From the NCBI RefSeq assembly GCF_003019035.1, contig NZ_CP027447.1: a DNA stretch of 64,000 bases; one strand, 5' to 3'. This DNA comes from Escherichia coli. Lineage in GTDB: Bacteria > Pseudomonadota > Gammaproteobacteria > Enterobacterales > Enterobacteriaceae. Positions within the stretch are counted from its first letter, which is position 1, and each line of letters starts with the position of its first letter. Below the pieces are notes generated by a model. That model was not told the origin of the DNA. It did no database searches and saw nothing but the letters and a program-made list of their open reading frames with translations. The translations under genes were made by a program, and so were the position numbers. Below are positions 51,455 to 55,223 of this stretch, piece by piece.

Positions 51455-52288
51455 TTGATTAACGAAAATGTGATCTCCAGCGGAATTTCTCTGATCTCGC
51501 TCTGGCATACCTACGCCGACGAGCATTACCGGGTGATCTGGCCGCGGGACAAGAAGAAACCGCTTATCGCCAACTCATGGGTTGCGGTGTATACCGTACA
51601 AGGATGTGGGAAAATTATTTTAAAGAATGGCGAACAAATAACTCTGCATGGCAACTGTATTATATTTTTAAAGCCAATGGATATTCACTCTTATCACTGT
51701 GAAGGTTTAGTCTGGGAACAGTACTGGATGGAATTTACCCCCACCAGTATGATGGATATTCCCGTTGGTCAGCAAAGCGTTATTTATAATGGCGAAATTT
51801 ATAATCAGGAACTCACCGAAGTTGCTGAGTTAATAACTTCACCAGAAGCAATAAAAAATAATCTGGCAGTCGCTTTTCTGACGAAAATTATTTATCAGTG
51901 GATTTGTCTTATGCACGCAGTCGGTAAAAAAGATCCACAACGGCGGCAAATTGAAAAATTAATTGCCACTTTACATGCCAGTCTACAACAACGCTGGAGC
52001 GTAGCTGATATGGCTGCCACGATCCCCTGTAGCGAGGCCTGGTTGCGTCGTCTGTTTTTACGCTATACCGGCAAGACGCCGAAAGAATATTACCTCGATG
52101 CGCGTCTGGATCTGGCGCTATCGCTATTAAAGCAACAAGGGAACTCGGTTGGCGAAGTCGCTGATACGCTCAACTTCTTCGACTCCTTTCATTTCAGCAA
52201 AGCCTTTAAAAATAAATTTGGTTATGCGCCGTCAGCCGTGCTGAAGAATACGGACCAGCACCCCACGGATGCCAGTCCACACAATTAA
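51455..52288 (+). CDS. yidL: AraC-family transcriptional regulator
   Basis: 277-aa ORF; C-terminal AraC-type double HTH ([38 protein letters not shown]). Confidence 0.75.
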
Positions 52289-53607
52289 CGTAACTCTGGC
52301 CAGTACGCTTTGTTGGCCTCCAGCAACTCATCCAGAATAGCTTTGGCGACCGAGGCGCTCGGTACCGTTTTCGACAACGTAATCGCCTGCCACAGGTGCT
52401 GATATGAACGCTGTTCCCAGGCGTCCACGACCAGTTTTTCCACCGCCACTTGCTGACTCATTAACCCTTTCTGAAACTGCGGGATATCGCCGACCACCAG
52501 TGGTTCTGGTCCGTTGTGCCCGACCAGACACGGGATTTCGACCATCGCTTCATCATCAAAGTTATGGATTGCCCCGTTGTTAGGCACAATCAGCAACATC
52601 CGCTCCTGAGTGTTGAAGGCAATCGCCGCCGCAAGATCGACGATGTATGACGCATGTTCGTCAATTTCCAGCTTGCCCGCCGCTGAATTTCCTGCCGCCG
52701 TAATGGCGCGGCAAGCATCGAAAACCTGTTTCTCGCGATGCTCCATCACCTCATTCGCGCGGGTATGTTCAGGGTTGGAATGCTGAACGACATAATCCGG
52801 GAAGAGATAATATTTCAGATAGGTGTTCGGCAATGTATCCGGGTCCAGTGCCTGGACATCCCGCGCTTTTGCATAGGTGTCGTTCCAGCTCGCTTCAGTA
52901 TGTGTATCTTGCTGCGGTGGAACATAACCGTGCTTAGAGACATATTGCCGCAGCTGGGGCATCAGGTCGTTGCCCTGCAAATCTTCAATTGATGTCCACC
53001 AGCCAAAGTGGTTCAGGCCGTAGTAGCGCACGCGCATCTGTTTGCGATCTTGCAGCCCAACAATTTGCGCCATCCGGCTTTCAATACCGATTGGCATGTC
53101 ACAGATGTTGAGGATTTTCGCATTCGGGCGCAGACGACGCGTGGCTTCTGCGACAATGGCTGCCGGGTTGGAGTAGTTGAGCATCCAGGCATTTGGTGAA
53201 TATTTTTCCATATAATCCACCAGTTCCAGGACGCCGCCAATGGAACGCATGCCGTACGCTATTCCGCCGGGTCCGCATGTTTCCTGACCAACAACGCCGT
53301 GGCGCAGCGGGATTTTTTCATCCAGTTCGCGCATCGGGTATTTGCCGACGCGGATGTGCGCCATGACAAAATCAACGTCGCTGAATGCCACTTCAGGATC
53401 GGTGGTGTAACTAAACGCAATGTCCGGCGCTTTTTCTTTAAGGATGACTTTACAGGCTTCGGCAATCACTTCCTGCCGCGCACCATCGTTATCATAAAAT
53501 TTCAGTGCACGAAGCGGGAAACGGTCCTGATTCGCCAGGAGCATCAACACGATGCCTGGCGTAAAGGTGCTTCCACCGCCTGCGACAACCACTGAGAATT
53601 TGGTCAT
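52285..53607 (-). CDS. glvG: 6-phospho-alpha-glucosidase, glycoside hydrolase family 4 (apparently intact)
   Basis: 440 aa; N-terminal NAD-binding motif [12 protein letters not shown]; uninterrupted frame. Confidence 0.75.
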
Positions 53608-55223
53608 TATACTGCCTCCGTAATGGCAACATTTTCTGCTGATTGATGAGAATTAATTAAGCTATCGAGCTGTTCACGCAGCTGGGATACATGCAAACCA
53701 ATGATCACCTGAATGGCATCGCCACTACGGAAGACGCCGTGCGCTCCCAGCTTTTTAAAGACTTCGTCATCCAGCGTTTGTGACATGTCATGCAGTGCAA
53801 TCCGTAGACGCGTCGCGCAATTGTTGATGCTGGAGATATTGCCGACCCCGCCCAGGGCTTGCAGGATACCGGCAGCCTGATCCAGCTCTTTTTTTGGCTC
53901 TGCAGCGGTGGTTTGGCCTCGCGAGGCTTTGTATTCGGCTTTTGAGTAGAGTTTCACTTCCGCATCTTCACGTCCCGGCGTGCACATGTTGAATTGCAGA
54001 ATCAGGGTGCGGAAAATCACGAAGTACAGCAGGGTAAAGCACAACCCAATGGCGATTTGGGTCAGCATCATATCCGCGTGGTTGCTGAACATCGGGATCC
54101 AGTTTTGCGGTAAAACCTGGTCAATCAGACCTCCGCCCATGTTGCCCACCACACCAAAGAGGTACATCACGGTCGACATTGAGGCCGCCAGCACGGCGTG
54201 TACCGCAAACAGCAACGGTGAAATGAACAGGAAGGTAAATTCCAGCGGTTCGGTAATTCCCACCAGCATGGCGGTTAAGGTTGCGGGGATCAGCAAGCCC
54301 GCCACTTTTACCCGATTTTCCGGTGCGGCAGTGAAGTACATCGCTAAAGAAATGCCCACGGCACCAAAGATTTTTGAGTTACCGTGCAGGGCAAAACCGC
54401 CTTCCGGGAACAACGATTTCAGCGGCTCGGCGCTCAAACTGAACTCTTGCAGATGCTGCGCCCAGTACATCTGAATGCCGCCTTCAACAGCTGCCGGACC
54501 AAAGATAAACGGTCCGTAGATGAAGTGGTGTAAACCGGTTGGGATCAGAATACGTTCGAGGAAGGTGTAAACCCAGACCCCAAGCGCACCCGCCGAACGC
54601 AGGAACGCTTGCAGAGATTCAATCCCCATTTGTACTTTTGGCCAGCCGAGCAAAGTCAGCCAGGCGCAGGGGATCATCACCAGGAAGGCGATAATCACCA
54701 CATAAGACGTCCCCTGGAAAATGCCGAGAAAAACCGGCAGTTTTTTATCGAACAGACGGTTATGCAGCGCCGTCACAATGCCGGAAATGATAATTGCGCC
54801 GATAATGCTGGTATCGAGGGTTTTAATCCCGGACATCATTGTCAGACCGCTACCTGCCACCGCGTCCTGAGTGAAATCGACGCCGAAGTAGCTTCCCCAG
54901 GTCATTCCCATCGCGTTGATGAAATAGTTCCAGGTCAGGAAACTCACCATCACCGCCAGACAAGCACGTCCCTGCGCTTGCTTAGCAAGGCCAATGGGTA
55001 AACCGACAGCAAAAATCAGCGGCATATTACGGAATACCGTCCAACCGCCCTCTTCAATAATATGTACGATTTGCGCGAATAAACTGTTCGGATCGGTCAG
55101 TGATTCCCCGACAAACATCGGGTTTTGCAGCAAGATGGCAAGACCCACCACAATCCCGGCGAAGGGAAACAGCAGCACTGGCGTGAACATCGCGCCGCCA
55201 AAGCGTTGAATTTGACTGAGCAT
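53607..55223 (-). CDS. glvC: PTS EIICB component (glucose/maltose family), fused IIC-IIB
   Basis: ORF 53607..55484; probable start [18 protein letters not shown]...; multi-TM IIC domain followed by an IIB domain with the CATRLR phospho-cysteine motif. Confidence 0.7.

Follow-up and report, generated by a model that had tools for sequence, protein, structure and literature searches.

The glv locus of Escherichia coli raises the question of whether a sugar pathway that is broken in strain K-12 is complete in other members of the species, and, if so, what it does. It was addressed here in a stretch of 64,000 nt of contig NZ_CP027447.1 (RefSeq assembly GCF_003019035.1), hereafter called the window. 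In the window a glycoside hydrolase gene (glvG), a transporter gene of the phosphotransferase system (PTS; glvCB) and a regulator gene (yidP) lie within the E. coli yidK-yidL-glv-yidP-yidE neighbourhood. Together they very probably form an undamaged ancestral glv operon, the positional orthologue of Klebsiella pneumoniae aglA-aglB, with the alpha-glucoside mechanism proposed below.

The gene glvG, an orthologue of aglB, occupies positions 52285-53607 on the minus strand as an uninterrupted open reading frame (ORF) that starts with ATG and encodes 440 amino acids, according to the ORF listing of the window. The N- and C-terminal domains of glycoside hydrolase family 4 (GH4) were both found by Pfam at full length, namely Glyco_hydro_4 (PF02056, residues 6-184, E 1.9e-66) and Glyco_hydro_4C (PF11975, residues 195-415, E 6.5e-56). 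The NAD-binding motif GGGST corresponds to residues 10-14 and is the same in the proteins of PDB entries 6DUX and 1U8X. Moreover, residues C169, D170, H200 and Y263 align to C171, D172, H202 and Y265 of Bacillus subtilis GlvA (1U8X), with which GlvG shares 73% identity in the alignment; in GlvA the Cys and His are metal ligands and the Asp and Tyr are catalytic, and the same roles are presumed for GlvG. With the K. pneumoniae 6-phospho-alpha-glucosidase (6DUX) 393 of 439 residues are identical (89.5%, E 1.3e-275). By family membership the 440-aa protein of the window is a predicted NAD+/Mn2+-dependent 6-phospho-alpha-glucosidase, and it is identical to the widespread RefSeq protein WP_000160112.1, which bears the name '6-phospho-alpha-glucosidase'.

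The transporter gene glvCB, an orthologue of aglA, lies at 53607-55223 on the same strand and encodes a PTS enzyme IICB of 538 amino acids from the ATG at 55223. The 625-aa ORF extending to 55484 is unnecessary, since the ATG at 55223 is preceded by a Shine-Dalgarno site (AGAGGA) and both the TIGR02005 family model and E. coli PtsG align with the protein from residue 2-3 onward. A single frame holds the domains PTS_EIIC (PF02378, E 2.9e-71) and PTS_EIIB (PF00367, E 2e-12). The CATRLR motif is found at residues 469-474, with Cys469 (in NCATRLR) aligned to the CITRLR site of PtsG, and GITEPLEF is found at residue 322. No IIA domain was found in the transporter, the Pfam and family-model matches being to EIIC and EIIB only and the protein stopping after IIB. 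The TAA stop of glvCB overlaps the ATG of glvG (TAATG), which suggests translational coupling of the two genes, and a GGAGG sequence is placed just upstream of the glvG start. In comparison with the sampled E. coli alleles the transporter of the window presents only two lineage-specific changes, A131S and V403I, both of them conservative. A first-pass annotation of this DNA had described the hydrolase as a clean 440-aa ORF with an intact NAD-binding motif, and IIC and IIB as lying in one frame with a CATRLR site, and both descriptions are borne out by these data.

The full 538-aa IICB is labelled 'PTS sugar transporter subunit IIB' by RefSeq and its annotation pipeline PGAP. This label can be explained by the fact that the apparently responsible equivalog model, NF007255, is 161 aa long, derives from the GlvB fragment of K-12 and matches the C-terminus of the protein. 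The title of TIGR02005, 'alpha-glucoside-specific PTS transporter subunit IIBC', is the more apt name.

The class of sugar handled by these proteins has not always been described in the same way. In older K-12 annotation glvC was called 'arbutin-specific' and glvG '6-phospho-beta-glucosidase', and glvC is listed as 'Arbutin specific PTS permease' by Touchon et al. 2009 (PMC2617782); in addition, GH4 does include 6-phospho-beta-glucosidases. A beta-glucoside pathway is nevertheless highly improbable. The transporter scores 956.6 bits on TIGR02005 against a cut-off of 607.3, with its residues 2-523 covering model positions 1-524, while it falls below the cut-off of the models for glucose (316.7 against 591.8 bits), maltose, N-acetylglucosamine, beta-glucoside and arbutin/cellobiose/salicin. 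The beta-glucoside model reaches about 46 bits and the arbutin/cellobiose/salicin model 43.6 bits, in both cases through the IIB domain alone. On the side of the hydrolase, the PDB matches to beta-specific GH4 enzymes (1S6Y, E 1.4e-61; 1UP7, E 3.9e-42) fall far behind that to the solved 6-phospho-alpha-glucosidase of K. pneumoniae, and the synteny with Klebsiella aglAB also argues against a beta-glucoside role.

The state of the locus in K-12 was established by base-level alignment of the window to strain HMS174, which served as the K-12 reference. Over the shared part of the locus the DNA identity is 98.8%, and both strains have the same yidP and flanking genes. Two lesions were located, both of them missing from the genes of the window. 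The first is an out-of-frame deletion of 508 bp in glvG (52507-53014, minus strand), which begins right after the codon for His200. Its junction is flanked by an 8-bp direct repeat, GAACCACT, with the upstream copy at 53007-53014 and the downstream copy at 52499-52506 (both minus strand); such flanking repeats are a hallmark of slippage or of illegitimate recombination, which is the likely origin of the deletion. The second lesion is found at transporter codon 369 (54117-54119, minus strand), which is CAG (Gln) in the window and TAG (amber) in K-12. As a result the K-12 protein is divided into GlvC, of 368 aa, and GlvB, of 161 aa, the GlvB model corresponding to residues 378-538 of the window protein. 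In HMS174 RefSeq flags the GH4 gene (815 nt) as 'frameshifted' and the IICB gene as carrying an 'internal stop'. The first-pass annotation had stated, with some doubt, that glvG is a pseudogene in K-12 and that the PTS component is split there into glvC and glvB; both statements were right, and the structure of the K-12 genes is not identical to that of the window.

The divergence between K-12 and the window is uneven, with one substitution in the 815 nt retained of glvG and 20 in the 1617 nt of the transporter gene, a pattern that suggests mosaic recombination at this locus.

If the K-12 lesions were artefacts of sequencing or annotation there would be no true difference to explain. We give this explanation practically no credence and found no point in its favour. 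The amber codon recurs in 348 genomes assembled independently of one another, of which the sampled members look like K-12 laboratory lines or their derivatives, and roughly 2600 genomes share the 86%-coverage pattern of the 508-bp deletion. With RefSeq marking both K-12 genes as pseudogenes and both lesions visible at base level in the alignment, the artefact explanation was rejected.

The Klebsiella locus that encodes the 6DUX protein contains a yidE-like gene (553 aa), a divergent GntR/UTRA regulator gene, an IICB gene (540 aa) and a GH4 gene (440 aa), and the order yidE, yidP, IICB, GH4 of the window is the same. Compared with the proteins of the window, identity is 81% for the Klebsiella IICB and 80% for the Klebsiella regulator. 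Given this matching gene order and neighbour, together with the high identities, E. coli glvCB-glvG are taken as positional orthologues of K. pneumoniae aglA-aglB. The intact state is evidently the ancestral one, and the two K-12 lesions are derived.

The first-pass annotation had implied that the intact state might be unusual, which it is not. Of 5426 complete genomes of the species, 4264 contain 80% or more of the 3.6-kb region. The 508-bp segment, and with it a full-length glvG, is present in 1652 (30%); of 30 sampled rows with this segment, 29 carry the annotation '6-phospho-alpha-glucosidase'. By subtraction, about 2600 genomes (48%) have the K-12-type deletion of glvG. The whole module is absent from about 1150 (21%), in which yidL is followed directly by yidE; BLAST of one such genome against the window gives the extent of the glvG-glvCB-yidP module as 3930 bp (52256-56185), in the place of which genomes without it hold 49 bp of filler. 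The absence of glvC from phylogroup B2 had been noted before (Touchon et al. 2009, PMC2617782). At transporter codon 369, 3925 genomes carry the CAG allele and only 348 the amber. Independent damage was seen in other sampled strains, with a stop at transporter Gln170 in CX08 and frameshifts of yidP in CX08 and XH993. Sequenced O157:H7 genomes have intact glvG, glvCB and yidP. The window is in no way exceptional in its state, and across the species the locus forms a patchwork of decayed alleles.

Two further observations were made in this survey. In the '94% coverage' class, represented by CX08 (locus L006, 1-1440) and AR_0369 (locus L008, 1002-2648), an IS200/IS605 element with a tnpA pseudogene and a TnpB/InsQ gene takes the place of yidJ-yidK and most of yidL and adjoins an intact glvG. 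Moreover, about 2300 genomes (3925 minus 1652) appear to keep an open, non-amber transporter gene despite a hydrolase with the 508-bp deletion, as in O45:H2 strain FWSEC0003 (locus L007, 1800-3416). A transporter left without its hydrolase ought to be of no use to the cell, or even to harm it, so that its retention is surprising.

Control of the operon can be sought in the divergent neighbour of glvCB. The gene yidP (55519-56235, plus strand) is intact and encodes a 238-aa regulator of the GntR/HutC family, in which Pfam found an N-terminal GntR winged helix (PF00392, E 3.6e-21) and a C-terminal UTRA domain (PF07702, E 1.1e-30). YidP is the obvious candidate for the regulator of glv and is presumed to be so because its gene is divergent from glvCB, occupies the same place in Klebsiella and is gained or lost together with glv, as seen in the genomes without the module.

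The control region between the two divergent genes is 295 bp long (55224-55518) and has two conserved blocks that E. coli shares with Klebsiella. One is a candidate operator, the imperfect inverted repeat ATGTCTAC-N14-GTAGAT (55373-55400, minus strand), which is preserved in K-12, in O157 and in Klebsiella and resembles half-sites of the GntR/HutC type. The other is a candidate CRP-like site, CATGA-N6-TCACG (55337-55352, minus strand), proposed from its resemblance to the consensus. The same intergenic region also contains an A/T-rich inverted repeat, AACACATCTTT / AAAGATGTTTT (55426-55452), with 11-nt arms and a 5-nt spacer, which is not conserved in the Klebsiella control region.

From these parts a mechanism can be proposed by homology. 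The IICB would import an alpha-glucoside, which may be isomaltulose (palatinose) or another sucrose isomer, maltitol, isomaltose or methyl-alpha-glucoside. During uptake the glucosyl C6 would be phosphorylated via Cys469, with the phosphate passing from phosphoenolpyruvate to enzyme I, HPr and IIA-Glc (Crr); a separate IIA is proposed as the donor because the transporter has no IIA domain. The GH4 enzyme would then cleave the 6-phospho-alpha-glucoside to glucose-6-phosphate and the aglycone. YidP probably keeps the operon repressed in the absence of an inducer, and the CRP-like site suggests that glv is also under catabolite control.

The proteins themselves are likely to work. In a small sample of five to seven alleles from E. 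coli, the ratio of nonsynonymous to synonymous polymorphism (pN/pS) is 0.00-0.05 for the GH4 gene and 0.015-0.16 for the IICB gene, with most values at or below 0.1, which points to clear purifying selection on the coding sequences. With this selection, the synteny with aglAB, identities of 81-89.5% and intact key residues, a functional alpha-glucoside PTS pathway in this strain is a reasonable inference. Whether the locus gives a routine growth phenotype is uncertain.

It may be that the proteins are sound and that the operon is silent under ordinary conditions, either cryptic or tightly repressed, as is the case for other cryptic glucoside operons in this species. It would then take a regulatory mutation, or a particular natural inducer, for the strain to score as a user of alpha-glucosides, and this explanation differs from that of a functional pathway on expression only. 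We consider it a serious possibility, although on balance not a probable one. In standard identification tables E. coli is listed as negative for methyl-alpha-glucoside and palatinose. In a VITEK 2 survey every E. coli isolate, one of O157:H7 and 55 others, gave a negative result for both palatinose and alpha-glucosidase (PMC9631374). An intact glvG would be expected in about 30% of E. coli, yet 56 of 56 isolates failed with palatinose; since O157:H7 genomes carry the intact locus, glv may be silent in short uninduced tests. Moreover, a scan of 52100-55700 gave no consensus sigma-70 promoter where shuffled sequences averaged 2.8, although such a scan says nothing about activator-dependent promoters. 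An intact repressor-type gene, yidP, adjoins the operon, and its product in the window has two lineage-specific substitutions, R86H and S222N. Finally, the locus has been broken or lost many times in the species, by deletion, by independent nonsense and frameshift mutations and by complete loss, from which selection on it would appear to be weak or niche-dependent. All of these points count against a pathway in regular use.

On the other side, the low pN/pS values hold across divergent alleles, and coding sequences maintained by selection must find expression in some natural setting. As for the VITEK test, it is brief and involves no induction, and the isolates tested came without genotypes. 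In addition, the control region has parts in common with that of Klebsiella, in which the operon works. A table whose test profile points to K. pneumoniae gives 98.9% of isolates as palatinose-positive (PMC3877295). A phenotype microarray of the E. coli type strain, a result given no weight here, was negative for palatinose, turanose, maltitol and methyl-alpha-glucoside.

A bolder reading is that intact glv is an expressed, niche-relevant trait in the roughly 30% of E. coli that carry it, O157:H7 included, directed at sucrose isomers and related alpha-glucosides. A separate idea is that the transporter may have a second role independent of the hydrolase, suggested by the roughly 2300 genomes that keep the one open with the other deleted. 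We advance both tentatively, as unlikely. Such sugars, isomaltulose among them, are found in honey and in material from plants and serve to sweeten foods.

Returning to the undamaged operon, the finding is correct but already known. The intact genes are annotated by RefSeq, the K-12 homologues of aglA/aglB have been called cryptic or truncated (PMC5309279), and presence and absence among phylogroups had been noted. What is added here is where exactly the two K-12 lesions lie and what they are, how frequent each is in the population, and the synteny with Klebsiella aglAB. The importance of the intact locus is modest only. Nevertheless K-12 is a poor reference for glv, as its split glvC/glvB and truncated glvG are defects of a strain or lineage, and these defects still distort annotation, as in the naming of the 538-aa IICB as a IIB subunit. 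If the locus is expressed, the strain would gain a catabolism that K-12 lacks, for sucrose isomers, maltitol, isomaltose and methyl-alpha-glucoside. Moreover, the pattern of intact, deleted, amber and absent alleles is a tidy example of the ongoing loss of an accessory sugar pathway.

On the other flank of the operon lies yidL (51395-52288, plus strand), which encodes an AraC-family regulator and adjoins yidK/yidJ. In the window it has a premature TAA at codon 16 (51440-51442), where K-12 and the near-identical strain SCU-301 (NZ_CP051751.1; human rectal swab, California) have TAC (Tyr). The longest ORF left starts at TTG 51455 and encodes 277 aa. Over the 8601 bp of window positions 49500-58100 only two bases differ from SCU-301, one at 51327 in the yidK-yidL intergenic region (G in place of A) and one at 51442, in the yidL stop. 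A 55-mer containing the stop had no exact match in any of the 5426 complete genomes, the best being one mismatch away, and for this reason the stop appears to be either a nonsense mutation private to this strain or an error in the sequence. The convergent 3' ends of yidL and glvG overlap by 4 nt (52285-52288), and no terminator-like hairpin was found between the two genes. In genomes without glv, yidL has a different and shorter C-terminus (867 against 894 nt).

Three known systems can be compared with the locus. E. coli PtsG (8QSR, 9HNP) is, like the transporter of the window, an IICB of the Glc family with the GITEP motif and the Cys site of IIB, and the two align end to end (E ~1e-57). However, the relation is distant, the window transporter falling below the glucose-model cut-off.

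The maltose PTS of B. subtilis, formed by GlvA (MalA, 1U8X) and GlvC (MalP), resembles the glv locus in pairing an IICB transporter with a phospho-alpha-glucosidase of family GH4 in which the Cys/His and Asp/Tyr residues are aligned. It differs in gene order, in phylum and in its regulator, the window locus having a gene of the GntR/HutC type; B. subtilis GlvR/YfiA is reportedly a positive regulator. When expressed in E. coli, B. subtilis glvA/glvC allowed growth on isomaltose and panose, and a crr mutant with the pair did not grow on isomaltose (PMC5309279).

The nearest likeness is to K. pneumoniae aglA-aglB (6DUX/6DVV), which shares with glv the gene order, the chromosomal position, the identities of 89.5, 81 and 80% for hydrolase, transporter and regulator, and parts of the control region. 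Neither transporter carries a IIA domain. Downstream of the GH4 gene the two loci differ, with yidJ-yidK-yidL in E. coli and DUF202 genes (yidH/yidG-like) following directly in Klebsiella. Moreover, the function of agl has been demonstrated, whereas the E. coli alleles are known here from their sequence. In E. coli, aglA and aglB confer the use of isomaltose and sucrose isomers, and AglA works with the IIA-Glc (Crr) of that host (PMC5309279).

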